A stretch of 49,470 nucleotides of DNA from positions 1-49,470 of the forward strand of contig JAKQLP010000051.1 in assembly GCA_029567095.1 (NCBI GenBank), written 5' to 3'. Below are positions 15,411 to 42,374 of this stretch, in pieces; positions within the stretch are counted from its first letter, which is position 1; the number at the start of each line of letters is the position of its first letter. The notes under the pieces are model-generated. The model saw nothing but the letters and a program-made list of their open reading frames with translations, was not told the DNA's origin and did not search any database. Made by a program: the position numbers and the translations under genes. The DNA is from a bacterium. Its GTDB lineage: Bacteria > Patescibacteriota > Dojkabacteria > B142 > OLB20.

Positions 15411-15412
15411 CT

Positions 15413-16456: not shown

Positions 16457-16469
16457 ATTGACGGCAAAA

Positions 16470-16811: not shown

Positions 16812-16813
16812 AA

Positions 16814-17585: not shown

Positions 17586-17658
17586 TAAATAAATAAATTG
17601 TCAAAATAGTCTATTAATATTATCAGAGAATCGTGCAATTTACAATTGCAGAGTGGGC

Positions 17659-19395: not shown

Positions 19396-19411
19396 TTGAA
19401 GTTTATTAAAA

Positions 19412-19484
19412 TGGACACTACAGGACTCGAACCTGTGACCATTCGCACGTCAAGCGAATGCTCTACCAACTGAGCTAAGTGTCC
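19412..19484 (-). tRNA. tRNA-Val (anticodon GAC), CCA not encoded
   Basis: Folded by hand. Acceptor GGACACT/AGTGTCC, D arm GCTC-AGTTGGTA-GAGC, anticodon stem TTCGC/GCGAA with loop TT-GAC-GT, T arm ACAGG-TTCGAGT-CCTGT. Confidence 0.9.
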
Positions 19485-19515
19485 AAAATACTAAAAAATT
19501 ATACACTGCACTAAG

Positions 19516-20124: not shown

Positions 20125-20175
20125 AATAATTATTGCTAGATTATATCTTTAAGTGCTAAAAATTGCCATACCAAC

Positions 20176-20203
20176 AAAAATGCCTCCGTTGGGAGACATT
20201 TTT
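20176..20203. terminator. Bidirectional intrinsic-terminator-like hairpin (AAAAATGCCTCC-GTTG-GGAGACATTTTT)
   Basis: 12-bp stem with one G-U pair and a 4-nt loop. A-tract on one side and T-tract on the other, so a U-run follows the stem on either strand. It lies between the mutL stop (20448) and the clpP start (20124). Confidence 0.55.
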
Positions 20204-20255
20204 GCTTGCACTTTTAACTATTTTTACTGCCTTTTGCTTATTTAGTTGTAATATC

Positions 20256-20285
20256 AGTATAGCAATATAGGTATAAAATAGTCAA
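20256..20285 (-). promoter_or_regulatory. Sigma-70-like promoter (TTGACT-18 nt-TATACT) reading toward the hairpin and clpP
   Basis: The hexamers were read on the minus strand, with the -35 at 20285-20280 and the -10 at 20261-20256. AT-rich context means a chance match is possible. Confidence 0.35.
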
Positions 20286-20447
20286 GAAATTTAAACGGGT
20301 CAAAATAATATGTGCTAACAATTTGAACGTAGGCGAAAAGTGCCTCCTACACTGGCATGCCGGATGCGTTATTGTTTCTGTTTCTTCGAGATATACTATC
20401 TTTGCCCTGCTCATTTAAACTCGAGTGGAATGAAATTGAACAAATTA

Positions 20448-26411: not shown

Positions 26412-27596
26412 CTATGGGCTGTCTGTGGCGTAAGCAGAACTTGTCAGTGCAGGAACCAAAAAAGAAAAAACAGCGTCTTTATTAGTATTTGAAGTCCTAC
26501 CTGTGCCCTCAAACAGATAGAATGGTTGCAGGAAGTTTGTCCATAATACCTGGGAATCTCTAGTTTGAGGCTCTATATATATTAATTTAGTTAGATTAGG
26601 ATCTATTTTATATTCAGCAATTTGAAGTTGCTGTTGTTGGCCAAGATAATTATCACCAACTAAATGTAGCCTATAAAGATAGCCATTATTTTTTTGAAGT
26701 TCTTGGAAGGCCTGATCCGGAGTTTGTAATTTATATATTCCAACCTCATCCTCATATTCCAAAGCCTTATATTCCAATTCAATTAAATCCTGCAGCATAT
26801 CTTGTGGCTTATTAGCGTATTCTTTTAATAATAGAGTAGCGATACCGTCATAATATGAATATTTTCTGACATCTATAAAAGTATCAGGGACAGTATTAGT
26901 AACGGGCTCAATAGCCTTAAGATATTTATTTAACGAGACCCTGACGCAATTATATTTATCGCTCTTACTTGATAGGCTTCCATCGGCTGCTCTGAAGGCA
27001 AAGTCTACTCTACTCGCCTCAGTATCGAGATTATTCTTTTTAATGTTAATGCGATCTAATATGGAAAGCGCTCTTTGAATAGCAAAATCCTGATCCTCAT
27101 TGGTCATTTCAATTAATTGGGTTGTATTCGTCTTGAATTTGTAATATTTTTGAAATCTATCAAAAGTAAATGTCCTAGTCCCATCTTCCGACTCCCAGTT
27201 CATTACATTATTAAGTACACTATAATCACCTGTAAAGCCTAATGCTGTTGCGGTTGCTTTACCTTTTTCAGCGTCATCCAGATACTCTCTTTCAGGCTTA
27301 ATTTTATAAACATAAACTACGGGTGGGAACTCAGGGAATTTGGCAGTAGTTTTTGAAATCAAACCAATATTTTGACTGCTCGAATTTAAGGAATTTAAAT
27401 CTGGTTTAGGGATTTGTTGGAATTTATTATCTGCGATCGGATAATTTGGATCAACTTCAGTTCCAGGGTCAGGACCTACTATTATTCCTGATTGTTTGGA
27501 TAACCAATCAATGAAAAGTACTACAATGACGAATATCAAAAAATAGATAAACATCCTTTTAACTTGTGTAGTGGTCTTTTTAAGCTGTGTAGCCAT
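26412..27596 (-). CDS. Hypothetical N-terminally membrane-anchored extracytoplasmic protein (394 aa)
   Basis: Basic N-terminus followed by a single TM (MFIYFLIFVIVVLFIDWL) and then a hydrophilic mixed alpha/beta domain. No motif recognised. Confidence 0.5.
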   Translation of the reverse strand: MATQLKKTTTQVKRMFIYFLIFVIVVLFIDWLSKQSGIIVGPDPGTEVDPNYPIADNKFQQIPKPDLNSLNSSSQNIGLISKTTAKFPEFPPVVYVYKIKPEREYLDDAEKGKATATALGFTGDYSVLNNVMNWESEDGTRTFTFDRFQKYYKFKTNTTQLIEMTNEDQDFAIQRALSILDRINIKKNNLDTEASRVDFAFRAADGSLSSKSDKYNCVRVSLNKYLKAIEPVTNTVPDTFIDVRKYSYYDGIATLLLKEYANKPQDMLQDLIELEYKALEYEDEVGIYKLQTPDQAFQELQKNNGYLYRLHLVGDNYLGQQQQLQIAEYKIDPNLTKLIYIEPQTRDSQVLWTNFLQPFYLFEGTGRTSNTNKDAVFSFLVPALTSSAYATDSP

Positions 27597-27664
27597 ATTT
27601 CCAATTCTATCGCAAAGTGTAATAATATTATATATGTAATTATTTTAAAGTAAAAATATAAGTA

Positions 27665-29002
27665 ATGAATAAAAAGATCGTAGCTTTAGGTGCAGTGTTC
27701 ATAGTCCTACTAATTGTGCTATTAATAATACTTGCTAATCGAAACAGTGGAGGCAGTGGATCTGTAACTGTGACTCCATCACAATCTTCGGGCCAGGTAA
27801 CTCTTATCTGGTGGAATCTTTTTGAACCTGAAGAAAATGTTAAACCACTTATAGATGCTTTTGAGACAGAATATCCAAATATCAAAGTGCAATATACTCA
27901 AGTGGGTTTGGATGGTATCGATAAGTATAAAACTGAATTACAAAATAGTTTGACTGATCAGGATGTGGTAACCTCTCCTGATATTTTCCCTATTCATAAT
28001 ACTTGGGTGGGTAAATTCCAAGATCTAATTGTGCCAGCGCCTTCTACAGTAGTATCCTCCACTGATATGCAGGACTTCTATTCTATCGTTAGTAGGGATT
28101 TTGTAAGATCGCAAAAAGTATATGGACTCCCAATGTCTTTAGATGCTATTGCCTTGATCTACAATAAAACAAAATTAAGAGAAAAAGGATACCAGGCTCC
28201 TGCTCTGACTTGGAATGATCTAAAAACACAGGCAGTGGACCTAACCGTAAAAGATCAAAGTAATAATATTACTTATGCAGGATTTTCCGCTTTTGATCCA
28301 GCCACATCAGAATTTTACTTCGAGGTAATGAACCAGCTCTTCTTGCAAAATGATGTAATAATGGTGGATACAACTACTAAGCTTTCAAAGATCGGAGATA
28401 ATGACAATGCAAGTTCCGCGGTAAGTTATTATAGGAATTTCCTCGAAGGTTTTGATGCAACTTGGGATCCAAAATTCAAAAAGGATATTGCGGCTTTTCT
28501 AGAGAATAATTTGGCTATGTATCCTGCTCCCAGCTGGAGATTAATAAATGTGCTTGAATATAATGATTTTTATAAATTAAACCTAGATGTTGGGGTAGCT
28601 ACTATGCCACAGCTAACTGGAGGAGGAGATTTTTATTGGCCCACCTATTGGGGGCAAACCGTAGCTAAAGATAGTCAATATTCAAAAGAGGCTTGGCAGT
28701 TTGTGGATTTTATTACACAACCAGAGCAATTACAATTATATAATGACACTGTCAAAGCTAATGGTAGGCCAATAGGAGTTATTTTCCCCAGGATTAGCCA
28801 GGCAGAGATCAATCAGGCTGATACTTATCTTGCTCCATATGCAACTTCACTAGCTAAAGCACAAAATTGGGATATGAAGGATGGCTGGGAGTTAAAGAAA
28901 CTACTCGATAATCTGTTTGGCACAAATAATGCAGAGATCGATGCTATTCAAGGGGCAATTAATAAGGTGTTACAAGAAGCAACTATTACTCCAACCCCTT
29001 AA
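27665..29002 (+). CDS. Extracellular solute-binding protein, family 1 (sugar-type ABC SBP), TM-anchored
   Basis: N-terminal TM with no lipobox Cys and a Gly/Ser linker. The following VTLIWWNLFEPEENVKPLIDAFETEYPNIKVQY, YGLPMSLDAIALIYNK and W-rich C-lobe are typical of SBP_bac_1. No permease or ATPase gene is adjacent. Confidence 0.7.
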   Translation: MNKKIVALGAVFIVLLIVLLIILANRNSGGSGSVTVTPSQSSGQVTLIWWNLFEPEENVKPLIDAFETEYPNIKVQYTQVGLDGIDKYKTELQNSLTDQDVVTSPDIFPIHNTWVGKFQDLIVPAPSTVVSSTDMQDFYSIVSRDFVRSQKVYGLPMSLDAIALIYNKTKLREKGYQAPALTWNDLKTQAVDLTVKDQSNNITYAGFSAFDPATSEFYFEVMNQLFLQNDVIMVDTTTKLSKIGDNDNASSAVSYYRNFLEGFDATWDPKFKKDIAAFLENNLAMYPAPSWRLINVLEYNDFYKLNLDVGVATMPQLTGGGDFYWPTYWGQTVAKDSQYSKEAWQFVDFITQPEQLQLYNDTVKANGRPIGVIFPRISQAEINQADTYLAPYATSLAKAQNWDMKDGWELKKLLDNLFGTNNAEIDAIQGAINKVLQEATITPTP

Positions 29003-31482
29003 TTTAAGCCAAATTGTATATTATCGGCTTTCGGGATACTGTTAATTGCCCAAGAGGCTAATTGATTATCAATATATGTTTTAAGATCATTAGGATCGTC
29101 TAAATGATCTTTAGAAAGACCTAATATTATCATTTGCGGCATTTCATAACTGGCATCGTTCATAAGGTTGATCATGATCTTTTTGTCAGCAAATTTTTCT
29201 TGTAGTTTTATAGCCGAAACATCCAGGTAATTAAATAGATTTGTTTTCTGAGTTGCACTAAGTTCAGAGTCATTAATTATACTTACCTCATAATTTGCTA
29301 GGTATATTATATTGGGAGATGTGCCATAACCTGGCTGACTTCCTGAATTACAAGTATGAACATCAACGCACTGATAGGCAGATTCAAAAACGCCCATTCT
29401 ATCAAATGCCTGGAACATTCCAATTAAAGCGATCACAATCATAATTAGATTATCTAGATCTAATTTACCTTGCATAATAGTAAGAAGGTGGAAAATAGCA
29501 CTTACGGATCCGAAAGCAACGTTAACAAGCCCCGCTAGTTTATCAACTGCTTTATCAAACAGGCTCCCTATCATAGTACCAATGAAACTACCAACACCTG
29601 AGGCGATAAACATTATCCATCCTAACGATCCACCGCTAACGGCTGTAATTATTGCTCCTACAACCATACCTGTAAAGGCTCCTATTGTACTTCCAATAAT
29701 CGCGGCAGCTCCGATAGGCACTCCCATCGCAGACAGTACCGCCATACCTGCAGCGGTACCAACGACTTGGCCAGCAAAGGAAGCTAACGCTGCGGGTTTA
29801 GCTGCATTGGAAATAACAAATGACATATTCTTGGCAAAGAAATTCCCAATTTGTAAGGCGGTTCTAGCCAAAGTAACAGGGAAAACAACTGAGGGCAATC
29901 CAAGTGATAAATTAATCCAATTGGATCCCACAATTAATACATTCTCCCATTTGCTTTTATTAGGATCTCCACCAAAGAAGTTTTCCTGTAAGTATCTCCC
30001 TAAATTACCTTTATACTTTTGCATAATAAGATCAATTTGGGAGGCTACCCAAAGATTGGTTTGGACATTTCCCAGAAGTTCGAACGTAGGGATAACTGCC
30101 ATAGTCCTTAACAATCTGGAGTTGCTAGTAGCAATTTTATTAATAATTCTGGTGTGCAGGCTATCACCGATCATGCCTCCAACCGATCCCACACCCAGTC
30201 CAATTGCTGCCCCAACAGTTATAGGCATTCCAGTTATAGCGGCTATGCCTACTCCTAGCACACTACCGACTGTGCCCCATTTAGTACCAGCGTCAGCCAA
30301 CTTAAAGATCCTCCCCCACCCTTTTATGGGTGTTACTTTAGCTTTAGAAATTGCATTAACATCCCAGCCCCCATGTTTGAGCATATATTGGCCATATCCA
30401 TGTTTGGTTTGAAATCTTTCTATAAAACCAAACTTGGCTAAAGTGCTATCGCTTACTACTAATTTACCTAATGTCGCAGCTCCAGCCACAGTGCCCATCA
30501 GTACACCAGCTATAGGGTTTGCGCCAAATACCAGATAAGCAACTCCACCGTATAGGGCTCCTGTAGTTATACTCTTACCGATATTAATTGTACCTTTTAC
30601 TACATCTGCTCCAATTGCAAAAGCTCTACCAACTCCAGTTCTGATACCTTTTGCTGTTGCCTTGGTTGCTTTTATAGCAGATGAGGTTTTAAGACCAAAC
30701 TCAGAGGTAGTTAGTCTAGTTTTAGAGTTTAATAGTTTACGACCTAGTCTAGAACCTGAAGCTTTGCTTATTAAGCCTTGCTTAACTGTATTGATAACCT
30801 TGGTAATTCTTTGCCTGATCTTATCAATGATGTTATCAACAATAATGGACACAGCAGTTTTAAATAGGCTTTCCTTTTTTTTCTTTTTTTTCTCTAACTC
30901 AAAACTTCTTCGCGCTTGCAGAGCCAGAGCAAATCGTTTCCTCTTACTTGTATCTTCTTTATTCGCAGTTATTTTAACTAAACGCTCTACAATATAGTCG
31001 TCAACCTTTTCTGGTAATTGTGCTAGATTAATTCTGCGGCGTATCCTAGAAGGGGTAAACATTTGGGCAGTTGCTCCAAGGATTCCCTTTTTGGCATAAG
31101 CCTCGAGCATTTCTTCCTGTCTTTTACTTGACCATTCCTTAAAAAATGCATCCTCATTTATTTGTTTTGTGCGCAGTAATTTTCTTACTCTACCTTTTAT
31201 AGTCCTTTGTTCAAGACTTTCGATCATGGAATCTGAATTGACTGTAGAATCCAATTTCTTTTCCTGTTTAGGGGCGGAATCTCTATCAATATTTGATAAA
31301 AGCTGTTCTTGTGCTTTAGGCTTAGCTAACAGGTAGTTTTCCAGATTAGTGCTTGCCTCCTTCAACATATCAGCAATTCTTCTTAATTCTTTTAACTTCT
31401 CGTTCAATGAATCCAAGGCCTCTTTAACTTCGGGGGACATTTCTATTTGATTAGGTTGTAAATTATTGGTTTCTGCGCTCAT
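28999..31482 (-). CDS. Hypothetical 827-aa membrane protein: basic coiled-coil N-domain, extensive glycine-zipper TM region, C-terminal ~125-aa domain
   Basis: No signal peptide. Residues 1-280 are Lys/Arg/Glu-rich and helical. Residues ~283-697 are Gly/Ala/Ile/Val-rich with many GxxxG/GxxxA repeats, for example GAAIGLGVGSVGGMIG and GAFTGMVVGAIITAVSGGSLGWIMFIASGVGSFIGTMIGS. The tail has two Cys (CVDVHTC). ATGA overlap with the upstream gene. Confidence 0.6.
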   Translation of the reverse strand: MSAETNNLQPNQIEMSPEVKEALDSLNEKLKELRRIADMLKEASTNLENYLLAKPKAQEQLLSNIDRDSAPKQEKKLDSTVNSDSMIESLEQRTIKGRVRKLLRTKQINEDAFFKEWSSKRQEEMLEAYAKKGILGATAQMFTPSRIRRRINLAQLPEKVDDYIVERLVKITANKEDTSKRKRFALALQARRSFELEKKKKKKESLFKTAVSIIVDNIIDKIRQRITKVINTVKQGLISKASGSRLGRKLLNSKTRLTTSEFGLKTSSAIKATKATAKGIRTGVGRAFAIGADVVKGTINIGKSITTGALYGGVAYLVFGANPIAGVLMGTVAGAATLGKLVVSDSTLAKFGFIERFQTKHGYGQYMLKHGGWDVNAISKAKVTPIKGWGRIFKLADAGTKWGTVGSVLGVGIAAITGMPITVGAAIGLGVGSVGGMIGDSLHTRIINKIATSNSRLLRTMAVIPTFELLGNVQTNLWVASQIDLIMQKYKGNLGRYLQENFFGGDPNKSKWENVLIVGSNWINLSLGLPSVVFPVTLARTALQIGNFFAKNMSFVISNAAKPAALASFAGQVVGTAAGMAVLSAMGVPIGAAAIIGSTIGAFTGMVVGAIITAVSGGSLGWIMFIASGVGSFIGTMIGSLFDKAVDKLAGLVNVAFGSVSAIFHLLTIMQGKLDLDNLIMIVIALIGMFQAFDRMGVFESAYQCVDVHTCNSGSQPGYGTSPNIIYLANYEVSIINDSELSATQKTNLFNYLDVSAIKLQEKFADKKIMINLMNDASYEMPQMIILGLSKDHLDDPNDLKTYIDNQLASWAINSIPKADNIQFGLN
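30875..30891 (-). repeat. Two 8-nt homopolymer tracts (coding strand A8-G-A8) encoding KKKKKK inside the 827-aa gene
   Basis: The plus strand reads T8-C-T8 at 30875-30891. The coding strand is GAG AAA AAA AAG AAA AAA AAG GAA. Confidence 0.9.
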
Positions 31483-32612
31483 TGTTGTTTACTAAAATTT
31501 TCTTGCAAAGCCTCTGATGATGCAATTAATTGTTGATTTTGTTCGTAAAGAGCGTCAATCTGAGCCTTCAGACTTTGGATCTGTTCTTCAGTTGGAGGTT
31601 CCGGTAAATCTTGTAGTGCTCGTGTTAATGTTTGGAGTTTAGCGGCTTCTAAATCCATTGTTAATGTTTGATCTTTACCTGGCCCAAACAAATCTTCGTA
31701 TGCGCTAAGTAATAATTGTTGCCTTTCATCTCTGGCCAAGTTAGGATCTGCAGCTTGTTTAATTGCAGCTTTCCTTTCAGCATCAATTGCTTTTTCTTCT
31801 TCTTCTTCCTTTTTAGCCTCAGCTTGTTTTTTAATTTTGTCATTTAAATTTTTAGCAGCTACCATTCGAGCAAATTGTTGATCCCAGCTATTAACATCAA
31901 TAATGTATTTGGGGTCGTAACTTGAATTTACCCATCTTAAAAGTCTATCAACAGCTTCTATGGTTTTTTTGTCAAAAAGTGCATATATTTCTTTAAATTT
32001 TACAAATACATTTTTAATATATTCACCTTTATCTTTATGATCAGTCTGCCATTTAGCAATCATATCCCTAATAATATGATCATTCTCCTGAAGCATCAAT
32101 TTGTACATACCTTCCACATTCATCATATTTGATATTTTAGGTCCTAACTGAGCTTGTTGGGCCGGAGGTAACTTTTTATATGCTTCAATTAAATAAGCAA
32201 CTTTCTCTTGGGCAAGAGCATTAACTTCATAGGGAATAGTTATGTAATTTCGTCTAGTTTGAAAATCCTTATACACTTTAATCAGATAATCGTAGAAAAT
32301 CACTTTGCCGGGTGGATTCTTTGCTTTTATATCATTGATCAAAGGCATTTTCCCAACAATTTCTACCTGATTTAAAGCACTCATTATCATATTCAATTGA
32401 GAATAGTCAGAGATTGGAATTTGGCCACCTTGATCTGTTCTTGAAATATCTCGTAGATATTTTACTGCAGCAATTGAATATTGAGCCGGGGCTTTGGGAT
32501 CATATGGATCTGGAGGGTATAATTTGACTCCAGCGTAATATGGAAAGCAAATATTTGGTAAAGACTGTTCGAGCCTCGTTATCGCATTTACTATGTCTGT
32601 AGTTTGTATCAT
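31479..32612 (-). CDS. Hypothetical soluble protein (377 aa) with a C-terminal charged coiled coil
   Basis: No TM or signal peptide. The C-terminal ~110 aa are heptad-like and charged (KKQAEAKKEEEEEKAIDAERKAAIKQA...SLKAQIDALYEQNQQL). Separated by 3 nt from the upstream gene and overlaps the downstream gene by 4 nt. Confidence 0.55.
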   Translation of the reverse strand: MIQTTDIVNAITRLEQSLPNICFPYYAGVKLYPPDPYDPKAPAQYSIAAVKYLRDISRTDQGGQIPISDYSQLNMIMSALNQVEIVGKMPLINDIKAKNPPGKVIFYDYLIKVYKDFQTRRNYITIPYEVNALAQEKVAYLIEAYKKLPPAQQAQLGPKISNMMNVEGMYKLMLQENDHIIRDMIAKWQTDHKDKGEYIKNVFVKFKEIYALFDKKTIEAVDRLLRWVNSSYDPKYIIDVNSWDQQFARMVAAKNLNDKIKKQAEAKKEEEEEKAIDAERKAAIKQAADPNLARDERQQLLLSAYEDLFGPGKDQTLTMDLEAAKLQTLTRALQDLPEPPTEEQIQSLKAQIDALYEQNQQLIASSEALQENFSKQQ

Positions 32613-32615
32613 CTC

Positions 32616-33773
32616 TTAAATATAATTAATGATTTTCTCTAATGGTTGGTCAGGATTTTCAAGACCATTAATTACATAACTATAAATTTTCATTTTGGAT
32701 TCAGGTGTAAGGGACAAGGCGTAAGATTCAATAGCGAACTCAGTCATCCTCCCAGTACTTTGGATAGGATAGGTGTCGCAGATGTATTTGTGATGGCTTT
32801 CAATTTCCCTATCCTTCATGGCCTGTCTTAATTCGATCTCATAAAAATTACGAGGAAATAAATTGCCGTTGAGAAATTCTTCGATGATTAAACTCTGGGA
32901 TTCCCAAATTAAACTTTCCTTAGTAGCCTGCTCTAAATTCTCAATATTATCAAGCACTCCTTTTGTATGATTAATCATCTCGTCTTCTAGATCTTTGAAA
33001 TAAGGTCCAAATCTCAGATTTTGTTTGTTAAATATTGATTTGAAATAATCAAATACATTCAATTTAGCCTGTTCTAGGTTGTAACCCTTATTTAAATAAT
33101 CGTAAACTGACTGAGATAGTCTTAGCATGAACGAATTTAACAGGAATTGAAATATTTCCAGAAATTCATCCTGATATAGATAAACAGCAACGCTAACTGT
33201 AGAATAATCCTCAAAAGCTCTGGTAAATTTGGGTGCTTGGTAATTGACTTCAGTTACACAGCTAAGGTTCGCTTTGATTAAATTTTGATCTTTTTCCTGA
33301 AGTAGTGTGGCATCGAGGTCTACTTCACCCCTATCATTAACTTTTATTGCATTAGGAATAAAAATCGAGAAACTTTCACTCATAGTGGCTTTATCTTCAT
33401 GAGCCGCGTCCAGGATCTTATCTTCCGTTACAGTTAATACTCTTAATAGTTCATAATCAGCAAATAACATTCTCGCTTCAAGAAATCTGATCGTGTAATA
33501 AGAATGTAAGGCATTAGTAAAATTTTCTGCGATATTATCTCCACTTATCTTTTCCTGAGAAGCCATCTCCAGCAAAATATTAACCTGATCGATAAAATCA
33601 TTAATCAATTGCTCAGTTCTTAAATTCAAACTTTGGAAATTAATGCTATTTATTGGGCCAGCGTTAAAAAGAAAGGCATAATCCCAAACCCTTGGTCCTA
33701 CAAGTTTTTGTAATTCTTGCATTGTCAGCTGGATTTTGTCATAAAGCTCCAACTGTTGAGCGGTGTTCGACAT
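32616..33773 (-). CDS. Hypothetical soluble protein (385 aa)
   Basis: ATG start and an 11-nt gap to the upstream gene. Mostly helical and acidic. No recognisable motif. Confidence 0.55.
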   Translation of the reverse strand: MSNTAQQLELYDKIQLTMQELQKLVGPRVWDYAFLFNAGPINSINFQSLNLRTEQLINDFIDQVNILLEMASQEKISGDNIAENFTNALHSYYTIRFLEARMLFADYELLRVLTVTEDKILDAAHEDKATMSESFSIFIPNAIKVNDRGEVDLDATLLQEKDQNLIKANLSCVTEVNYQAPKFTRAFEDYSTVSVAVYLYQDEFLEIFQFLLNSFMLRLSQSVYDYLNKGYNLEQAKLNVFDYFKSIFNKQNLRFGPYFKDLEDEMINHTKGVLDNIENLEQATKESLIWESQSLIIEEFLNGNLFPRNFYEIELRQAMKDREIESHHKYICDTYPIQSTGRMTEFAIESYALSLTPESKMKIYSYVINGLENPDQPLEKIINYI

Positions 33774-33784
33774 CAGAGTTCAAT

Positions 33785-35458
33785 TTATTTTGAAGAGAAT
33801 ATTCCCGCTTTACCCGTTAACAAGCTGGTGATAGTGCTTACAGTGCCCATAGCTTTCTTGCCGACTTCAGTAATATCTTTACCAGTTCTAGAAATATCCT
33901 GGAATGGACTATTTACTTCTAGGAACTTTTTCACCATCTCCAGTACTGTAGGAGTAGCCATGTATAATCCAAAGACCAACAGGGACGTTACAATGTTCTT
34001 CCCGTTATTATTAATTGTAGTTGCATCGAAGATCTGTCCTTGAGTATAGCCTAATAGAGGTGGAGTCCATTTAATTTGACCGGCTTGGGAGAAAGCGGAA
34101 CTTAGTTGTGTTTCTGATCCAGCTGCTGAATATCCAAAAATCACAAGAAGTAGGAACATGGCATAGAGGACTATGAATGTTAATGAGGCCCCTCCTAATG
34201 TTTTAAAGAAGTCATTCAATGTCTTATTGGTATTGCTAGGCAGGGCTGCTCCTAAGAAAACAAATGGCGCAATAATTGGATAAAAGCTTAAAATTAAATA
34301 ATTATTAAGTAATGTGAAAAAAAGTTTAAATGCTGTTTGGAAAACAGCAAGTGCTAAAATCAATTCAATTAAAGCATTGCCAATTCCTAATTTGTCGTTA
34401 TCAGCCAAATTTAGAACTATAGCAATACCTTGTCCAATTATATTGTTTTGGGCTGCTTTTGGCACCAAGTATTCAAAAGAACATCTGGTTGGTGAGTTCC
34501 AGGTATTACACACATTGACGGTGGTCATTGAAAATATATTCCAGATACTCATTTGAGGATCATCCGGTTGGAGAACGTTTTTGATATCTGTTGATGCGGC
34601 GCTGTCCTCACCGTGTTCAGCCCATTTTGGTACTTGAGGTGTAGTGCCAGAGGATGGATTGATTAATTCGTATCCAGGTGACCCTTCTGAAGTGAATAGA
34701 AAATTATAGACAACATTAGATCCTAGATATATCGCATCAATAAATAACCCGCAGAGCGCATAACTAAATGTAACAAGCACCATAGAAATTATGACTGAAG
34801 GAATTGAGTTAGCAATAGTTACAATTTCCTGCCCCCCCATGGGTTGTCTTAATAAAATCAAGAAAGCAATAGCTATTAAAATGATGATATAAAATCCATA
34901 AACAATATTTCTTGACCACTGCCATAAGCCCAATACCGGTTGTAATACATTGTATCCAATCCCTGGGGCATAAACAGAACTATCCTGTGGATCAGCAGCT
35001 AAAGTTGTAAAGGAAACTCCTTCCCTTACTTGATAATACTGATCTTGCGCCCACACTATAAAACTAGCTGGTTGCATCTCATATAATGTATCTGTCACTC
35101 GAGCAATTTCGAATACAGCACCACCTTCAGCTACATAAGGCAAGTTGATTTGATTGTAACTAGTAGACCCTATCGTTGTATCTTCTTTAGGACCAGTAAT
35201 ATATTCAGACATAGATTTTACGACTGTATCCATCCATCCATCCCATTTACCTTCGGAATAATTGAGGGTGTAGACATCAAGTGGTGATTTATCTCTGGTT
35301 GAACTGGTAGAACCTGCTCCCATGACATGAAGCGGGGCGATAGATATTAAAAACAATGTTGCCAGAGTAAATGTTATAACCGAGACTAAAGGAAAACTCT
35401 TGAATTTACTTAAAAAAGATATGAGGTTCTTATTCATATTATAATGATAAAAGGACAT
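33785..35458 (-). CDS. Hypothetical polytopic membrane protein (557 aa) with an N-terminal signal/anchor and a ~150-aa exported domain; VirB6/TrbL-like in topology only
   Basis: N-terminal hydrophobic segment ending VMG/AG, then a hydrophilic domain, then at least 6 hydrophobic helices separated by one large loop (residues ~255-335). Hydrophilic C-tail. No sequence motif recognised. Confidence 0.55.
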   Translation of the reverse strand: MSFYHYNMNKNLISFLSKFKSFPLVSVITFTLATLFLISIAPLHVMGAGSTSSTRDKSPLDVYTLNYSEGKWDGWMDTVVKSMSEYITGPKEDTTIGSTSYNQINLPYVAEGGAVFEIARVTDTLYEMQPASFIVWAQDQYYQVREGVSFTTLAADPQDSSVYAPGIGYNVLQPVLGLWQWSRNIVYGFYIIILIAIAFLILLRQPMGGQEIVTIANSIPSVIISMVLVTFSYALCGLFIDAIYLGSNVVYNFLFTSEGSPGYELINPSSGTTPQVPKWAEHGEDSAASTDIKNVLQPDDPQMSIWNIFSMTTVNVCNTWNSPTRCSFEYLVPKAAQNNIIGQGIAIVLNLADNDKLGIGNALIELILALAVFQTAFKLFFTLLNNYLILSFYPIIAPFVFLGAALPSNTNKTLNDFFKTLGGASLTFIVLYAMFLLLVIFGYSAAGSETQLSSAFSQAGQIKWTPPLLGYTQGQIFDATTINNNGKNIVTSLLVFGLYMATPTVLEMVKKFLEVNSPFQDISRTGKDITEVGKKAMGTVSTITSLLTGKAGIFSSK

Positions 35459-35468
35459 TAATATTAGT

Positions 35469-35486
35469 ATAGGTATTAATACCTAT
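35469..35486. promoter_or_regulatory. Perfect 18-bp palindrome ATAGGTATTAATACCTAT in the only sizeable intra-operon gap
   Basis: Read directly from the sequence. It lies 11-28 nt upstream of ATG 35458 of the 557-aa gene. As RNA it could form a 7-bp stem with a UUAA loop. No U-run follows. Confidence 0.5.
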
Positions 35487-35515
35487 GAGTGCAAGATTTA
35501 ATATACAATCTAGGA

Positions 35516-35941
35516 TTATCTTTCTTGAAGATATTTCGAGGAGAACTTATCTACTTGATCCAATTCTTCTTTGATCAATCTTAGAAGCCCGATCGCATCC
35601 TCTTCCTTCATATCTTTTGTGATCTCGCCTAATAATTCAGAATCGATTCTTTCGATCTCTTGGGCAATCTTTTTATATAGCTCAGGATATTTACCAGGTA
35701 ATTGCATAATATTTTGAAGTAATTGCGTCTGTTTGGAAATGATCGGAGTCTTTTCTTTGAGCATTTTCTTTATTTCGGAGAATTCTTCAATGTTATTATT
35801 CTCTGCATAACTGATACATTCATCAAGTATCATTTTATTAATTGCATCTATATAGGCAAAACGCATAGCCTGCATTTGTTCGTCAGTATATTTGAATAAG
35901 TCTTGCAGGTATAGATTGATTTTATCGTTGTAAAATATCAT
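35516..35941 (-). CDS. Hypothetical small helical protein (141 aa)
   Basis: ATG start 7 nt after the stop of the giant gene. All-helical, acidic, no TM. Confidence 0.5.
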   Translation of the reverse strand: MIFYNDKINLYLQDLFKYTDEQMQAMRFAYIDAINKMILDECISYAENNNIEEFSEIKKMLKEKTPIISKQTQLLQNIMQLPGKYPELYKKIAQEIERIDSELLGEITKDMKEEDAIGLLRLIKEELDQVDKFSSKYLQER

Positions 35942-35948
35942 TTATATA

Positions 35949-38900
35949 TTAATAAGGTTTAGTTGATACTCTACCCCAAAGATCCAGGAATAGGTCGGTC
36001 CAGAAATTTGAATTGTAACTAGCGTCACCAAAGTTTTTTAACAATGATCTGTATTTGAATTTAATACCCTCGAATGTTGAGGCTGCTAGATCCAATTGTC
36101 CGTAAGATGGGGGTTGAGACTCATTTGTTAATCCCCAGAATATTCCAGCCATATCTCCAAGTGCGCCTTGTTCCTGTATAGCTGCTATTTCTCTAGCACC
36201 CCATCCTTTAGCATATCGGTTTAGGAAAGGATTGACACCAATAGCCATTGCTAAAGTCCCAAGAACCAAATATGGATTAGCAAGAAATACCAAACTAGGA
36301 ACAAGAGACCCTACTACTGCCCCTGCTAAGATGAAAAAGCGGGTTGTATTGTCGATCATCATTAATCCTTCATAGAACTCCCTATGTACTTTAGAATGTT
36401 CTCGATAGGCACTGATCTGATTCAATTTCAAGGAGAATCGGTAACTGAGATCTCTTCCTCTTTTAATTTTATCAAGTTCATCAAGAACATCATCATACAA
36501 TGTCCCATATTGAGTATCATATTTATTCCTAGCCGTAACCTCTCTTGTATGGATATTCCCTTGTTTATCCCTATAGTGTACGGTATAGGTTTTCTTTTCA
36601 CCATAATATCTAATAAGCTCCGTTTCACTAAGGTTTCTGATTGGGTTAATGTCTAAGGTATAGCCTGTAGTTTTATTTTCGATTTTTAATTTCGCTTGTC
36701 GAGAATAGCGTGCTTTTGTACTCCTAACTTTTTTAAATGATTTTGGCACTTCATATCCTCCCATAGTCGATGACATTTCTAGGAAATATATTTCCTCTTG
36801 TCCTTGCCATTCACGTTTAAAGTAATAGCCTTTGATGCCTTCAGCCATTTCAGGCATTTCTATCATCTCAAAGCCTAAACCCTCAAGTACTCCTGCACCT
36901 TGTTCCGCAATATTTCTCTTTATACTAGCTAGTGAGGTAGCGGTAACGGTTTCAGTCCCATCTTCGGCCTTATGTTTAATCTCTATAGTTTCATGAGGAT
37001 TAAATAGATCTCCTGGCTTTGTAGAATCATAGTCCGCTTCTCTACCCCAGACACCAACCGCCATTACTTTATGAGATCTGGCCATTGAGTAATCTTTAAA
37101 GAATTCTTTAACTGTATTCAAATCAACATATTCACCACCTATCAACATTTTTGGATTTTCATATCTTTCGATAGCATCTTGATTTTCTTTACCATCTTGA
37201 TAGAGGTCGTTCCAGGGCTGCATTTGAGCTCTGGCCATTTCCTCGTATAGATCTGTTAGAGTATAAGTACCACCATCTTCCTCTCTTCTTCGGGCATCTT
37301 CTTTCATCATTAATTCAGCAATTCTCTCGTAATCTTTGATCTTCCCAACATTTCCCCTTGCGGCATCTAGCCCCTTGGTTTGGCCCATTGCAGCCAAACC
37401 AAAAGGGTTTAAAATCTGTTGAGGAGCAGGAGTCTCAGGAATCCACATAATTTCTTTAATTTCATCCAATACATTCCTAGACATTTGGCCCATCCTAAGT
37501 TGTCCTTTTCTAACAATGCCGTCTCTGCTTCTAGCTGCTACGTCGGGGTCTGCCAATTGGTCCGCTAGAGGTCGATTCTGGTCCAAACTATCAGCAAAAT
37601 CTTTTGTTAAAACATAGCCATCCCTATATACTATTTGTGTCCAGTTGCCCCTATGATAAATTGTGTCCGATCTTAGTCGTTCGGCAATCTCCCTCAGATC
37701 GTCCCTACTTCTATCCTCTAATCCCACTGGTAATAATCTTCCATCAGCATCTCTATTCATTGCATATCCTGTCCCCTTTCTTTGAGTATGCCTTTCAGTA
37801 TGAATTAATTCATTTAAAATGAAATCCGCCAATTCACTATTCAATCTATATTGATCTGCTCTATCTGCGTAACTGTATATTGTTTCTACAGGATTACCCT
37901 GCATATCATAATCATAGCCCCCTATCTCGGGTAGTAATTTAATTAAAGACTGATTATCAACCTTATGTTCTGCTCTCATCCTGCCATAAATGACCTTTTG
38001 GACATAATAGACATACATATCCGGAGAACCAGTAAACAAGCCCCTAGGGGCCCATGCTCCTTTGTCCAAATCGATTTTCCCTCCGGTTTTTTCTTTTAAC
38101 CAATTAGGAAGATTTTGTAAAAAAGGTAGCCTGTGAACTGGAATACCAGTCAAGAACGATATTGCTTCTAATCCATCAGAAGAATCTGTCCTAAATCTAT
38201 TTAAGCCTAAACCAAATCCATCCATGAAGTTTTTCTTACTCAGTGCAGCTGATGGGATTTGGAATATACCAGGCCCCTTATCTTTAGTATGTAGCCAAGC
38301 TACAGGAGAGAAAATATCAAGTTTAGCTCCTAAAGCTCCTCCACCCATCCTGCCTTTTGTACCAGCGGCTCCAAAGTAAAAGGCATCTTTGTGTCTTGTG
38401 GCTGCCCATCTTAAACTGGAATCATTGTTTGAGGCCCTAAATAAACCACCTAGATCAGTAATTTTACCTAGCTCATCCTCGTTAAGCTCTCCTTTAATTA
38501 AAGCCAGGAAGGCGTCTTTATCATTAAAATGTTCGATCACTCTATGCATAGGATGATTCTTATCCTGCATAGCGGCATCATAGAGCTGCTCTAATTGTCT
38601 GCCATCGGGCTTGTTCCCTTTGAAATAACTAGAAAGGTACAAGGCAAGGGCTGTAATATCATTATCAAGTTTGCTCTTTGTAATCTCATCAGTTGCTATC
38701 TCTCTTTGGGTATGAAGTTGATTAAAGATCCTGACCATACCTAATAATCCCTGCTTTTCCCTATCGCTCATTTGATCAAATCTGTCTCTATCAATGCCTA
38801 GATCTCCAAGTTTAAGAGGATACATCATATCCATTGCTTCTGAGGTAATTTCATCTATTTCGTTACCTATCATATCCTCCTGGAGCTCGGCATAGTGTTG

Positions 38901-40970
38901 CTGTAGCCTGCTTGCCGTCCTATTTTGCTCAAAGAAAGCATAATATTGGTTACCATTAGGATCATCAAAGCCTTCATTTCTAATATATCTTTCCAATTGT
39001 TGGCGAATTACTTTATCCTGCTCTTTCTTATCCATCGAAGTGAATTCAGGATCATCCTTCAATTCAAGTTGAATGCCTTCTATTAATTTGTTAACCCATT
39101 TACCCTCCAGTGTTCCTATCTCTAAGCGTTTAGTTAAATAGCTTCGTCTTTCCGCACGTTCCCCCCAGTTGTGGTTGTGCATGATTTCATGTGCGATCAC
39201 TCTATCAATATATTGAGGAGGGAGAGGATGGCCTTGTGGATCTCTAGTCTTATTAATACTAGCAACATCAACACAAACAATTGTGGGCATATCCTTCCCA
39301 GTGGAAATAAATAGACCGGAAGGACTTGGGTGGGTCTCATTATCTATAACACCTTGAAGTTGAGTACCGTTTGCACCGTTCAATAAGTTCATTAATATTC
39401 TTGAAGACACTACTTTCCCTCCCTCCAGCACTAGATCCTCGACCATGAAAGTTGGAATCCTTTTACCATAAGCATCCTCGTGGAAGGTTAATTTTATTGC
39501 TCCCATTTCAATGGCCTGCTCAAGCATCCTCCTTGTCCCATTTTCGTTGAATTGATTTTCCATGCTTCCAGTTCTGGAAAGGAAGGTGTGTTGACCTACT
39601 TGATAATCTAGTATTTGCAGTAAATACTGTCTTGAGATTTCTCTTTCAATAAATTCACCTTTAGCTGTAGGATCGAGATCCTGTTGCCTGTCTGCTTTGT
39701 TCTTTGCAGTTAAGTACCACCCCATTAATACTTCAGATCGAGCTTCTTTATCTTTCCGAAGATCTCTTAAAGTACCTTTTAATACTTCTAATTCTTTTCT
39801 TTGAGATTCATTCAGAGGTTCACCATCTGTAACAGTAATATTTTCAAAAACCTGATCTATTTGTTCCTCCGAAAAACTAATATTCTTACGGAGCATTTTG
39901 TCAGCAACCAGATTATATGCGTATCTCATTCTTTCTCTAGGCGTTGTTGTGCTTTCTTGTTTAGAAAGTTCCTCCAGTACTTCATTTGTGACTTTTTGTG
40001 TTTCTGCCACTGGACTTTTAGCTACACCTTTTTCGAGCATTTCCAGGGCGCTACGATTACCTTTAGTATCAGAAACTTCTGTTATCTTTTCAGTTAGACT
40101 AACTGGGACTGGTGGTTTTTCCGGTTCAACAGGTTTATTTCTATCTCTGATACCTGTAAGTTGTACCTCAGGGACTTCAGTTTTTGTTGGGGTTTCTACA
40201 ATATCTTTTTCTGGAAGAGGTGCATAACGTTTCTCTAATTTCTGAATCTGCTCTCCATGCTTTTCCACTAAACCTTTACAATTTCTTCTTAAGTAAGCTA
40301 AAACTAGTTTCCCATCTCCATTGAACTGTTTTGTTTTAATGAGAAAATCAAAAGCCCAATTAGCATCATTCTTTTGGAAGAAAAGTTTAGCTCTAAATAC
40401 CAATGTATTCCAGAACCCTAGATTTGGTATATTCTTATCGAAATCCGATGGTGGCTTAATGCCTTCCATTATCTTGTCAGTAGTTTCTTTAGGAATATCT
40501 CTAGAATTTGCAGCAATATTACTTAAATAGGCTCTGGCTTCTCGTCTGAACTGTTCAAGATCTTCTGTTTTTGAGCTCTCACTAGCTCGGGTAGCCAAGG
40601 TCTTTAAACCTTCAAGCTCTCTAAAAGCTTTACTATTTGACGACTTTAAATCGCTTACAGCTTCAATTGCTTTGGTAAACTTTATTTTCCCTTCACGATC
40701 ATCTTCAGGTCTGACCTGCAATTCTCTTTGGATCTCTTTAATCTTCTCTAATTCAAGTTTTAATTCGTCATCTCTTTCATTCTTTTCTAATTCAGCTTCA
40801 ATGGCTCTGGCCATGAGATCTATCTCGGCTTCGATTTGGTCTGCGATCTGTTGGGGTGTTAATTGAGTTTCCTGATTACCCAGATAGAATTCAAGCACAT
40901 GCTTATCCCTATCCTTAGTGGGCCTTTGAGCGGACGTGATTGTGTCTATCATCCCAGGTGCAGTGCTCAT
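35949..40970 (-). CDS. Hypothetical giant protein (1673 aa) with an HExxH zincin-like motif and a C-terminal TM hairpin
   Basis: Uninterrupted frame with an ATG start and no signal peptide. N-terminal coiled-coil and Pro/Glu-rich linker regions. VIAHEIMHNHNWGE at residues 591-604 (nt 39159-39200). Two adjacent hydrophobic helices at residues ~1545-1583 (FFILAGAVVGSLVPSLVFLANPYLVLGTLAMAIGV). No Walker A motif. Confidence 0.65.
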   Translation of the reverse strand: MSTAPGMIDTITSAQRPTKDRDKHVLEFYLGNQETQLTPQQIADQIEAEIDLMARAIEAELEKNERDDELKLELEKIKEIQRELQVRPEDDREGKIKFTKAIEAVSDLKSSNSKAFRELEGLKTLATRASESSKTEDLEQFRREARAYLSNIAANSRDIPKETTDKIMEGIKPPSDFDKNIPNLGFWNTLVFRAKLFFQKNDANWAFDFLIKTKQFNGDGKLVLAYLRRNCKGLVEKHGEQIQKLEKRYAPLPEKDIVETPTKTEVPEVQLTGIRDRNKPVEPEKPPVPVSLTEKITEVSDTKGNRSALEMLEKGVAKSPVAETQKVTNEVLEELSKQESTTTPRERMRYAYNLVADKMLRKNISFSEEQIDQVFENITVTDGEPLNESQRKELEVLKGTLRDLRKDKEARSEVLMGWYLTAKNKADRQQDLDPTAKGEFIEREISRQYLLQILDYQVGQHTFLSRTGSMENQFNENGTRRMLEQAIEMGAIKLTFHEDAYGKRIPTFMVEDLVLEGGKVVSSRILMNLLNGANGTQLQGVIDNETHPSPSGLFISTGKDMPTIVCVDVASINKTRDPQGHPLPPQYIDRVIAHEIMHNHNWGERAERRSYLTKRLEIGTLEGKWVNKLIEGIQLELKDDPEFTSMDKKEQDKVIRQQLERYIRNEGFDDPNGNQYYAFFEQNRTASRLQQHYAELQEDMIGNEIDEITSEAMDMMYPLKLGDLGIDRDRFDQMSDREKQGLLGMVRIFNQLHTQREIATDEITKSKLDNDITALALYLSSYFKGNKPDGRQLEQLYDAAMQDKNHPMHRVIEHFNDKDAFLALIKGELNEDELGKITDLGGLFRASNNDSSLRWAATRHKDAFYFGAAGTKGRMGGGALGAKLDIFSPVAWLHTKDKGPGIFQIPSAALSKKNFMDGFGLGLNRFRTDSSDGLEAISFLTGIPVHRLPFLQNLPNWLKEKTGGKIDLDKGAWAPRGLFTGSPDMYVYYVQKVIYGRMRAEHKVDNQSLIKLLPEIGGYDYDMQGNPVETIYSYADRADQYRLNSELADFILNELIHTERHTQRKGTGYAMNRDADGRLLPVGLEDRSRDDLREIAERLRSDTIYHRGNWTQIVYRDGYVLTKDFADSLDQNRPLADQLADPDVAARSRDGIVRKGQLRMGQMSRNVLDEIKEIMWIPETPAPQQILNPFGLAAMGQTKGLDAARGNVGKIKDYERIAELMMKEDARRREEDGGTYTLTDLYEEMARAQMQPWNDLYQDGKENQDAIERYENPKMLIGGEYVDLNTVKEFFKDYSMARSHKVMAVGVWGREADYDSTKPGDLFNPHETIEIKHKAEDGTETVTATSLASIKRNIAEQGAGVLEGLGFEMIEMPEMAEGIKGYYFKREWQGQEEIYFLEMSSTMGGYEVPKSFKKVRSTKARYSRQAKLKIENKTTGYTLDINPIRNLSETELIRYYGEKKTYTVHYRDKQGNIHTREVTARNKYDTQYGTLYDDVLDELDKIKRGRDLSYRFSLKLNQISAYREHSKVHREFYEGLMMIDNTTRFFILAGAVVGSLVPSLVFLANPYLVLGTLAMAIGVNPFLNRYAKGWGAREIAAIQEQGALGDMAGIFWGLTNESQPPSYGQLDLAASTFEGIKFKYRSLLKNFGDASYNSNFWTDLFLDLWGRVSTKPY

Positions 40971-41102: not shown

Positions 41103-42374
41103 ATGACAGATACCTCGAATCAGAACCCTGTTCAATCTCCATCTGATAACCCTTTCTTTAGACCTGTAAGTAATGATCCGGCTTCGGTTGCAGCTGTGCC
41201 TGCTCCTGATCCTGGAATTACTCCACAGTCACCACCGGCTCCTACTGCTACAATAGTAGATCCGATGACTACAACACAGCCTTCTGTTATGACTACAGAT
41301 ACGCCTTTGACAAGCTCAGTGACTGACAATACGACTATGCCTGTTTCTACTGAAGTAATGCCAGCTACTACGAATACTGAACCTGTTTTACCAGAGTTAA
41401 ATAACAATATGAATCCTGTTCAAACAGAAATGCCTGCAGTAGATACAATGCCAAGTACCTCAGTAATGGATAATAATGTAAGTGGAGCTGCTCCACTAGA
41501 ATCAGCGATGTTAGAGCCAATGAGCTCAACGTCAGCTGCATCTGCAGAGCCAGCAATTACAGAGCCAATGGGCTCAACTTCAGTTGCATCTACAGTGCCA
41601 GCAATGACAGATTCAATGAGTTCGGTCACAACAATGCCTACTGATTCATCAGTATCTGAGGTTGTAAATACGGATAGTTTACCTGGATCAGCTCCTGTCA
41701 TGCCTCCTCAGGTTACTCCTGATTTAGGAGCAACAGCTTCTGCGAGTCCAGAATTACCTCCAACTTTAACTCCAATTGAACCAGCTCTGGATTCAGTGGA
41801 CAAAGCTGTTGAGACATCAAAAGAAACTTTACCCGATCTAAATAATTTAAGTAGTCAAATGCCAGATTTAGCAACTGAAGCTAAACCTTTAGAAACGGTT
41901 GCAGCAAATGACCCAAGTTCAGTAAGCCCAATGATCGATACTTCTGCAATGAACATGCCAGCAACTGACTCATTACCAAGCATGGATGCTCTAGCAACAG
42001 GCACTGGTCAGTCGGTACAAAGCCCGGCTTTGGAGCCTCAACCTGAAGTAGTTACTAGCTCGAACAATGCTCAACCTGAACTAGCTCCAATGGAGTCTGT
42101 ATCAGCAGCTCCTACATTGCCTCCTCTTGAACCAGTGGCTCAGCCTGACCCTGTAAATATGGCTATGGAGACTCCAGTTGTAGCTCCAATTGCTCAGGAA
42201 GTCCCTCCAGTGGCAACAGCTGAAGCTCAGGAAGTAAAGCCCGAAGCTGCTCCTGCAACAGAGACAGCACCAGCACCGGTAGGTAAAATGAAAAACTTAG
42301 TATTACTTTTAGGTGTATTAGTTGTTGGAATTATGGCCTTGGTATTAGGTATAATAGTGGCATCAACACAATAG
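41103..42374 (+). CDS. Acidic Pro/Thr/Ser/Ala/Met-rich low-complexity protein with a single C-terminal TM (tail-anchored)
   Basis: 423 aa with almost no Lys/Arg or aromatic residues until GKMKN, followed by LVLLLGVLVVGIMALVLGIIVA at the extreme C-terminus. No signal peptide. Composition is visibly more GC-rich than its neighbours. Contains internal tandem repeats. Confidence 0.6.
   Translation: MTDTSNQNPVQSPSDNPFFRPVSNDPASVAAVPAPDPGITPQSPPAPTATIVDPMTTTQPSVMTTDTPLTSSVTDNTTMPVSTEVMPATTNTEPVLPELNNNMNPVQTEMPAVDTMPSTSVMDNNVSGAAPLESAMLEPMSSTSAASAEPAITEPMGSTSVASTVPAMTDSMSSVTTMPTDSSVSEVVNTDSLPGSAPVMPPQVTPDLGATASASPELPPTLTPIEPALDSVDKAVETSKETLPDLNNLSSQMPDLATEAKPLETVAANDPSSVSPMIDTSAMNMPATDSLPSMDALATGTGQSVQSPALEPQPEVVTSSNNAQPELAPMESVSAAPTLPPLEPVAQPDPVNMAMETPVVAPIAQEVPPVATAEAQEVKPEAAPATETAPAPVGKMKNLVLLLGVLVVGIMALVLGIIVASTQ
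41514..41657 (+). repeat. 3 x 48-bp tandem repeat (two close copies plus one degenerate) inside the low-complexity gene
   Basis: Units start at 41514, 41562 and 41610. The first two are GAGCCAATGAGCTCAACGTCAGCTGCATCTGCAGAGCCAGCAATTACA and GAGCCAATGGGCTCAACTTCAGTTGCATCTACAGTGCCAGCAATGACA. They encode EPMSSTSAASAEPAIT / EPMGSTSVASTVPAMT / DSMSSVTTMPTDSSVS. Confidence 0.85.

Follow-up and report, generated by a model that had tools for sequence, protein, structure and literature searches.

What kind of system is encoded by six same-direction minus-strand genes that occupy about 12 kb (positions 28999-40970) of a Dojkabacteria contig, in a region otherwise made up mostly of housekeeping genes? 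The window that we analysed, that is, the whole stretch of 49,470 nucleotides (nt), is contig JAKQLP010000051.1 (GCA_029567095.1), from OLB20, Dojkabacteria. An initial reading made from the letters alone, hereafter the sequence-only reading, had seen in these genes a lineage-specific envelope or cell-contact apparatus of a reduced-genome bacterium. The operon is indeed real and conserved in such a bacterium, and the role proposed for it fits the data without going further. We give about an even chance to a more specific answer, namely that the operon is a Dojkabacteria-specific, ATPase-less membrane module of a Patescibacteria host-interaction apparatus that resembles type IV secretion systems (T4SS). 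The six genes, each an open reading frame (ORF) whose length is given in amino acids (aa), are the following.

35949-40970, minus strand: g1, 1673 aa, first gene of the operon
35516-35941, minus strand: g2, 141 aa, acidic and soluble
33785-35458, minus strand: g3, 557 aa, polytopic membrane protein
32616-33773, minus strand: g4, 385 aa, acidic and soluble
31479-32612, minus strand: g5, 377 aa, soluble, with a charged C-terminal stretch
28999-31482, minus strand: g6, 827 aa, glycine-zipper protein with multiple transmembrane (TM) segments

Gaps of 7 nt (g1-g2), 57 nt (g2-g3), 11 nt (g3-g4) and 3 nt (g4-g5) separate the genes, g5 and g6 overlap by 4 nt (ATGA), and no terminator-like sites were found between the operon genes on the minus strand.

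The proposed module would be chromosomally fixed and built around g3, a VirB6/TrbL-like polytopic protein. The hydropathy profile of g3 shows a polytopic protein with about six TM helices and two extracytoplasmic regions, with a topology that is probably N-in/C-in. A word-indexed homologue search with g3 returned 46 clusters. When 1.84 billion representatives were scanned with the g3 profile in HMMER, 3,155 had E <= 1e-3 and 988 of these E <= 1e-30, and the top 150 gave nearly full-length matches. Many members of this family have 770-960 aa and a hydrophilic C-terminal extension, no Pfam domain was found in any of those scanned, and the named members belong to Dojkabacteria or 'Patescibacteria group' metagenome-assembled genomes (MAGs). 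AlphaFold2 models were obtained from 33 sequences (predicted local distance difference test, pLDDT, 67; predicted TM-score, pTM, 0.61) and from 125 sequences (pLDDT 76, pTM 0.73). Both combine an N-terminal anchor and an ectodomain with long helices that form a bundle; besides the anchor, the helices span residues 173-203, 215-256, 359-405, 410-445 and 489-512. The extracytoplasmic loop at residues 257-358 (about 100 residues) contains two conserved Cys and an invariant QPDD motif. At least five TM helices and a large extracytoplasmic loop, which define the VirB6-type topology, are therefore seen in g3 by hydropathy and by AlphaFold2.

Searches with these models point in the same direction. 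With Foldseek against the PDB, the TrwI/VirB6 chains of the R388 T4SS come first for both g3 models, with weak scores (E 0.019-0.12, probability 0.90-1.0, target TM-score (TMt) 0.35-0.42, root-mean-square deviation 10-13 Å). DotA, from the Legionella T4SS, is also listed, and the remaining matches are an incoherent set of G-protein-coupled receptors and transporters. Against BFVD, the second match is annotated as TrbL (probability 0.95). In the models, then, the resemblance of the g3 fold to VirB6 appears reproducible and is statistically weak.

The best BFVD match of g3 is G3MBL9 (E 2e-3, TMt 0.42, probability 1.0), which is the uncharacterised protein Gp153 from the jumbo phage Bacillus phage G and may also be a membrane protein of TrbL/VirB6-like type. 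A phage protein at the top of this list is what might be expected if the operon were a prophage or tail-like module that had been domesticated, g6 being its tape-measure-like protein, and g6, with a coiled coil and a glycine-rich hydrophobic core, presumably has a tape-measure-like composition; tape-measure entries appear far down the list. Nevertheless, none of the six proteins matches a PHROG, a scan of 2.9 million viral contigs turned up no g3 relative, genes for capsid, terminase, portal or integrase are lacking, and the operon occupies the identical chromosomal position between housekeeping genes across the lineage. We reject the prophage reading, as extremely unlikely, on the PHROG result, the viral contigs and the fixed position. 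A tblastn search of g3 against 72,556 plasmids gave no match either.

Additional evidence for a T4SS link comes from the gene neighbourhoods of distant g3 relatives. We sampled four contexts of such relatives outside the six-gene operon, a small sample, and T4SS genes adjoin the g3-family member in two of the four (those of proteins P0187 and P0185). P0187 (771 aa) is encoded 46 nt downstream of a co-directional gene for a 923-aa protein with matches to DUF8128, T4SS-DNA_transf, TrwB_AAD_bind and TraG-D_C, which mark it as a coupling protein of VirD4-like type. Beyond it come a convergent He_PIG gene, SBP_bac_1, a gene of 396 aa, VTT and alaS, which match the He_PIG-SBP arrangement of other Dojkabacteria operon loci and the SBP gene, 394-aa gene and alaS of the window, and because these flanking genes match we read P0187 as a positional orthologue of g3. 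P0185 (478 aa, locus L032) closes a cluster that comprises seven T4SS_pilin genes (PF18895, VirB2-like), a ClpB-like AAA+ ATPase, a Big_5 protein and a TM protein of 1190 aa whose C-terminus carries a CHAP domain (E 5e-5). The layout of this cluster matches that of the published Patescibacteria T4SS locus, which is essential in Southlakia epibionticum and combines VirB1-, VirB6- and VirD4-like genes with an array of VirB2-like pilins (PMC12857230). The other two contexts, L015 and L033, keep the linkage of Cob_adeno_trans, VTT, E1-E2 ATPase and alaS and also encode unknown proteins that are giant or highly charged. When the neighbours of the g3 homologues in L015 and L032 were searched with hidden Markov models (HMMs) of g1, g2, g4, g5 and g6, no match was found. 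The linkage of Cob_adeno_trans, VTT_dom, E1-E2 ATPase and alaS is found at the following positions.

1153-12520 of locus L015
10001-22883 of locus L033
the context of P0187
23997-42914 of the window

Because these four genes stay linked, the short form of g3 (557 aa) and the long one (771-960 aa) look like positional orthologues whose partners have been replaced wholesale.

Several results weigh against a T4SS-like module. The contexts L015 and L033 contain no T4SS gene. Scans of the 49-kb window found no VirB4, VirD4, VirB3, pilin or hydrolase gene, and no Dojkabacteria locus has any of these genes at 10 kb or less from the operon. None of the five other proteins (g1, g2, g4, g5 and g6) has a match among known T4SS components. 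For g3 itself, a profile alignment to TrwI by hhalign reaches 0.3% probability, PF04610 (TrbL/VirB6) has no match at E <= 1 in g3 or in 55 members of its family, among which Pfam finds no recurrent family, and PDB profile searches with two alignments are empty. In the Foldseek search of the PDB, no match has E <= 1e-3, TM-scores stay below 0.5 and the better g3 model brings no improvement. VirB6 family membership is not shown by sequence, and g3 is VirB6-like, not a family member. We file it as such because the sequence test failed and because linkage to T4SS genes is found only in some of its relatives.

The same results are close to what one would expect of an autonomous and undescribed Patescibacteria envelope machine outside the T4SS, for which g3 would be a generic scaffold and the T4SS neighbourhoods incidental, and which could serve in anchoring, feeding or membrane remodelling at host contact, or else in envelope biogenesis or division. 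All six proteins are without a sequence-family match, and no ATPase or pilin gene is found near the operon in any Dojkabacteria locus. Two of the sampled contexts have no T4SS gene, the g3 locus is tied to Cob_adeno_trans, VTT and alaS across distant lineages, as a core function would be, and g3 diverges at a housekeeping-like rate (see below). This reading nevertheless has to treat as coincidence that the annotated fold ranked highest, in two libraries and for both models, is VirB6/TrbL, that a co-directional VirD4-like gene is found 46 nt upstream of a positional orthologue of g3, and that pilins and a CHAP protein occur in the L032 cluster. We consider it possible, on the unlikely side. We also find it unlikely that the operon is by itself a complete ATPase-less machine specific to Dojkabacteria-type bacteria, made of a VirB6-like channel, a glycine-zipper membrane protein and a giant hairpin-anchored zinc protease. 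It would then be a new host-attachment or feeding apparatus, more than a T4SS accessory island, and the Patescibacteria-wide g3 family would define an apparatus in many lineages.

Family searches over all six proteins leave the other five without relatives of known function. Pfam, NCBIfam, PHROGs and PADLOC gave nothing significant for any of g1-g6, and PDB sequence-profile searches with alignments of the six proteins (two alignments for g3) gave nothing meaningful. The only PADLOC match is JetD on g5 (E 0.005, 14 bits), and no defence system was matched. Neither the six proteins nor the other window ORFs scanned (most of those of at least 150 aa) show an AAA, VirB4 or DUF87 match, and no VirB1-like hydrolase (SLT, CHAP or lysozyme) was found by Pfam in g1-g6 or in eight g6 orthologues. 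Literature searches found no description of the six-gene operon or of the g3 family. The sequence-only reading had noted the absence of a Walker motif, and a conserved Walker A motif is indeed absent from all six protein families. Its membrane picture, with a hairpin in g1, a polytopic g3 and a glycine-rich g6, is reproduced by the hydropathy profile, in which g2, g4 and g5 have no hydrophobic segment, and the gene lengths, spacings and overlap that it gave agree with the ORF coordinates. On the other hand, its statement that no family can be recognised fails, since g3 belongs to a large family with VirB6/TrbL as best folds and with distant members in T4SS contexts, and g1 contains an invariant HExxH motif that it had missed. 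It had also named a confident placement of the genes in an already described system as grounds against it, and such a placement is reached only halfway: the link to T4SS consists of a weak fold match and of neighbourhoods, and does not extend to a sequence family.

The six genes nevertheless form a unit that is strictly conserved. About 20 distinct contigs of Candidatus Dojkabacteria-type Patescibacteria show the same order, and in all loci long enough the successive genes encode 1578-1898, 137-167, 491-594, about 390, about 320-379 and 846-1155 aa. Homologues of g3 lead to Candidatus Dojkabacteria MAGs, including the complete 1.17-Mb genome CP129475.1, and two of the nearest species representatives are labelled 'uncultured Candidatus Saccharibacteria' by their submitters. 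Contigs with an identical g3 and a g1 at 99.9% identity are present in three public assemblies. This conservation of gene order rules out a random juxtaposition of the six genes, and the synteny across related genomes that the sequence-only reading had asked about is therefore found. Its term lineage-specific is also borne out, as five of the six proteins are detectable only inside the Dojkabacteria-type lineage.

The six proteins do not diverge at the same rate. Identities between the window and locus L009, for the operon and for genes around it, are listed below.

76%, PFOR beta (pyruvate:ferredoxin oxidoreductase)
70%, g3
69%, alaS
68%, SBP
41%, g2
38%, g4
35%, g1
32%, g6
26%, g5, the fastest diverging of the six

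Proteins g1, g2, g4, g5 and g6 diverge about twice as fast as g3, which behaves like a housekeeping protein. This asymmetry fits a conserved channel (g3) with host-facing or cargo-like partners. In one divergent lineage, represented by L030 (1-9865) and L007 (3-8137), the operon is expanded, with ORFs of 1724, 155, 760, 89, 1111, 167, 572, 395 and 1182 aa.

The giant protein g1 is the first gene in all complete loci, with orthologues of 1578-1898 aa. It has no signal peptide, its N-terminal third is charged and of low complexity, and its C-terminal half is conserved. No Pfam, NCBIfam or PDB-sequence match was found for g1, nor did Pfam find any in 11 orthologues, and two large homologue searches returned 2 and 4 proteins, as the word prefilter fails on a long low-complexity protein. 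Two features of g1 can be located on the sequence.

39177-39191, minus strand: HEIMH, putative zincin metal-binding and catalytic motif, residues 594-598 of g1
36210-36353, minus strand: pair of hydrophobic helices, membrane hairpin anchor, residues ~1540-1587 of g1, with Asn-Pro between the helices

In alignments at 15-44% identity, H594, E595 and H598 are three of only 17-23 invariant columns. The HExxH motif is present in 13 of the 13 orthologues that cover the region, all from lineages with the six-gene layout of the window, and is absent from the giant protein of the divergent L007 lineage, which has the expanded operon. The context of the motif, hydrophobic-x-HE-hydrophobic-x-H, is typical of zincins. 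E707, about 113 residues downstream of the motif, an unusually long spacing, is also invariant and is a candidate for the third zinc ligand. Residues 565-598 resemble the flagellinolysin model NF033876 weakly (E 7e-4; 19 bits, where the cutoff is 205), hhalign against the ArdC zincin of R388 gives 6.6% probability, and no curated peptidase family of Pfam or NCBIfam reaches its threshold. From its motif, g1 is a putative zincin, and the thinness of this assignment adds to the points raised above against a T4SS-like module. The C-terminal helix pair (residues ~1543-1585), in which R1544 and P1566 are invariant, contains the only hydrophobic segments of g1. Because g1 combines this C-terminal hairpin with the lack of a signal peptide, most of it should lie in the cytoplasm, unless the machine itself exports it. 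In L032, a gene convergent to the g3-like gene (12245-17710, minus strand) encodes a protein of 1821 aa that has HELKH at residue 1368 and a TM segment at its C-terminus; its architecture is g1-like, it has no HMM similarity to g1, and in a protein of this length a single HExxH has a chance expectation of about 5%.

The small protein g2 follows g1 in every locus and shows no outside similarity in a PDB profile search. In L030, a pair formed by a large protein and a small g2-like protein occurs twice, and the 1111-aa member has a C-terminal TM pair like that of g1. This duplication suggests that g2 is a candidate dedicated partner of the hairpin-anchored giants, or a chaperone.

Protein g4 is encoded directly after g3 in all loci examined and has no PDB or Pfam match. 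Nothing supports the idea that g4 is a split-off extension of g3, as a profile comparison that included the C-terminal extension of the long g3 forms shows no relationship. No outside similarity was found for g5 by PDB profile search. In L006, L007 and L030, a single ORF (1442, 1227 or 1182 aa) takes the position of g5 and g6. Taken with the ATGA overlap seen in the window, this speaks for g5 and g6 acting as a single unit. Protein g6 has a charged N-terminal domain, a patch rich in Lys and a long multi-TM core of glycine zippers, in which most invariant residues are Gly, and its small C-terminal domain contains a conserved pair of Cys. There is no Pfam or PDB match for g6, and Pfam on eight g6 orthologues reveals no recurrent family. 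Profile comparison of g6 with g3 shows no relationship, and hhalign of g6 with the 1190-aa CHAP protein of L032 gives 65% probability over the Gly-rich TM stretch only. An NlpC/P60- or CHAP-like C-terminus of about 120 aa (…PGFVVFFTNKD…ATHVGIL…VYEAN…), considered by eye for the g6 orthologue of L029 (12948-15725), was dismissed, being unsupported by Pfam and by BLAST against a true CHAP domain. A 276-aa plus-strand ORF inside g6 (29582-30412), rich in Pro, Ala and Ile, mirrors the glycine-zipper codons and is almost certainly not a gene.

The features of these proteins also raise the question of whether most of them are cargo. According to this explanation, only g3 would be machinery, and g1, g4, g5 and g6 would be fast-evolving effectors delivered to the host, where the hairpin of g1 and the glycine zippers of g6 would insert in the host membrane, with g2 acting as an effector chaperone or immunity protein. 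The absence of a signal peptide in g1, g2, g4 and g5, their divergence at about twice the rate of g3 and of housekeeping genes, and the duplicated pair of a large and a small acidic g2-like protein in L030, reminiscent of an effector with its chaperone, are all consistent with it. Toxins and effectors, moreover, commonly pair a C-terminal hairpin anchor with a zincin motif. Nevertheless, the genes keep a strict single-copy order and fixed length classes throughout the lineage, without the gain, loss and shuffling usual for effectors except in L007 and L030. The fusion of g5 and g6 in some lineages, and their translational coupling in the window, suggest stoichiometric subunits, and no toxin or immunity family was detected. 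We therefore regard the cargo explanation as quite unlikely.

If the operon is instead a membrane module of a T4SS-like apparatus, as we favour, oligomers of g3 would form a platform or channel in the cytoplasmic membrane. Protein g6 would be a second large membrane subunit, with its charged N-terminus in the cytoplasm and its disulfide-bearing C-terminal domain facing outward, and g5 would be its partner. Held at the membrane by its hairpin, g1 might cleave a protein or peptide substrate by means of an HExxH...E zinc site, either on the cytoplasmic face of the machine or, after export, in the host envelope, while g2 would be its dedicated partner or chaperone and g4 an adaptor. Energy would probably be provided by VirB4/VirD4-type ATPases encoded elsewhere in the genome.

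The surroundings of the operon are also conserved to a large extent. Upstream of g1, the flank consisting of a divergent tail-anchored unknown protein and Cob_adeno_trans is kept, and a divergent signal-less protein of 368-555 aa is found at this position in most complete loci. Its sequence is conserved between species only in the last ~30 residues, the C-terminal TM region. In the window, the divergent protein has 423 aa, of which 1.7% are Lys+Arg; it lacks a signal peptide, and its only TM helix is C-terminal. Downstream of g6, SBP_bac_1 adjoins the operon in all loci that reach that far, and most Dojkabacteria loci have a convergent He_PIG surface protein, SBP_bac_1 and DUF3048. The window (26412-29002) has no He_PIG gene and, beyond the SBP gene, a 394-aa TM-anchored unknown protein in place of DUF3048, which is also found in L009 and L006. 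These flanking features are located as follows.

41103-42374, plus strand, window: divergent neighbour of g1, 423 aa, tail-anchored, acidic, rich in Pro, Thr, Ser and Ala
27665-29002, plus strand, window: SBP_bac_1 solute-binding lipoprotein-like gene, convergent to g6 (Pfam E 3.5e-23)
16565-21103, L004: He_PIG, SBP_bac_1 and DUF3048 trio
17162-20379, L006: same trio
17111-21518, L027: same trio, also present in L028, L029 and L030

The stop codons of g6 (minus strand) and SBP_bac_1 (plus strand) overlap by 4 nt (28999-29002), which leaves no intergenic room for terminators on either strand. On one side of the operon, the window contains alaS, murB and mutL, and on the other Cob_adeno_trans and pyruvate:ferredoxin oxidoreductase. 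The rest of the scanned window ORFs are mostly housekeeping genes, such as those for PBP1, PheST, RecG, TyrS, ThrS, UppP and a Mur ligase, with a few unknown proteins. The sequence-only reading had described this housekeeping context, with alaS on one side and an oxidoreductase on the other, as well as the divergent tail-anchored protein and the convergent SBP, and all of these are seen. It had likewise pointed out a candidate promoter element upstream of g1, whose letters are present at the position below.

41003-40995, minus strand: TGGTATAAT, candidate extended -10 promoter element of the TGnTATAAT type, read from the sequence

The element is found 25 nt upstream of the ATG of g1 on the minus strand. 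In this AT-rich DNA, 45 promoter-like hexamer pairs were found in the region, where shuffled sequences lead one to expect 42.8 +/- 6.8. Since hexamer matches are not above chance, the element is a candidate promoter, and that role is plausible only.

Patescibacteria account for much of bacterial diversity. If the favoured explanation is true, the g3 family, with thousands of members and no Pfam entry, would be a divergent VirB6 family missed by current annotation, and the five lineage-specific Dojkabacteria partners, including a giant membrane-anchored zincin, would be candidates for host contact and processing. Even if the link to T4SS were wrong, a strictly conserved 12-kb block without an assigned function in a genome of about 1 Mb would itself be notable.

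How does this operon compare with known systems? Like the zincins of ArdC and flagellinolysin type, g1 shows the invariant HExxH context and an invariant downstream Glu. Unlike in those proteins, the motif is located inside a 1673-aa hairpin-anchored protein and the putative third ligand is about 113 residues away. The accessory proteins of monoderm T4SS, such as PrgK, TraG(pIP501) and the CwlT-type VirB1 analogues, are also large TM proteins encoded beside a VirB6-like gene. Unlike them, g6 and g1 show no SLT, CHAP, LytM or NlpC/P60 match, and the sole enzymatic signature of the operon is the HExxH of g1. With VirB6/TrbL (TrwI of R388), g3 shares a polytopic architecture with at least five hydrophobic helices and a large extracytoplasmic loop and, in the models, long helices that reach beyond the membrane. 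The hydrophilic C-terminal extension of the long g3 forms (771-960 aa) resembles that of the extended VirB6 proteins of Rickettsiales and others (PMC12857230). In contrast to VirB6/TrbL, g3 is larger, with an additional N-terminal signal-anchor and ectodomain, and its operon shows no linkage to VirB4, VirB3 or VirB8.

The closest comparison is with the Patescibacteria T4SS. The five partners of g3 are not among its described components, and VirB4, TrsD, VirB3/PrgI, pilins and VirB1 are missing from the window operon. Nevertheless, that system is likewise chromosomal and relaxase-free in ultrasmall epibiotic bacteria, and it combines a VirB6-like protein with arrays of VirB2-like pilins, a CHAP or lysozyme hydrolase and a VirD4 that is often unlinked. 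In a candidate phyla radiation (CPR) survey, VirB6 homologues are scarce in Microgenomates and absent in Gracilibacteria, and most CPR VirD4 homologues are encoded away from virB4 (10.1101/2025.01.22.634366), a distribution that leaves room for a divergent VirB6 family.

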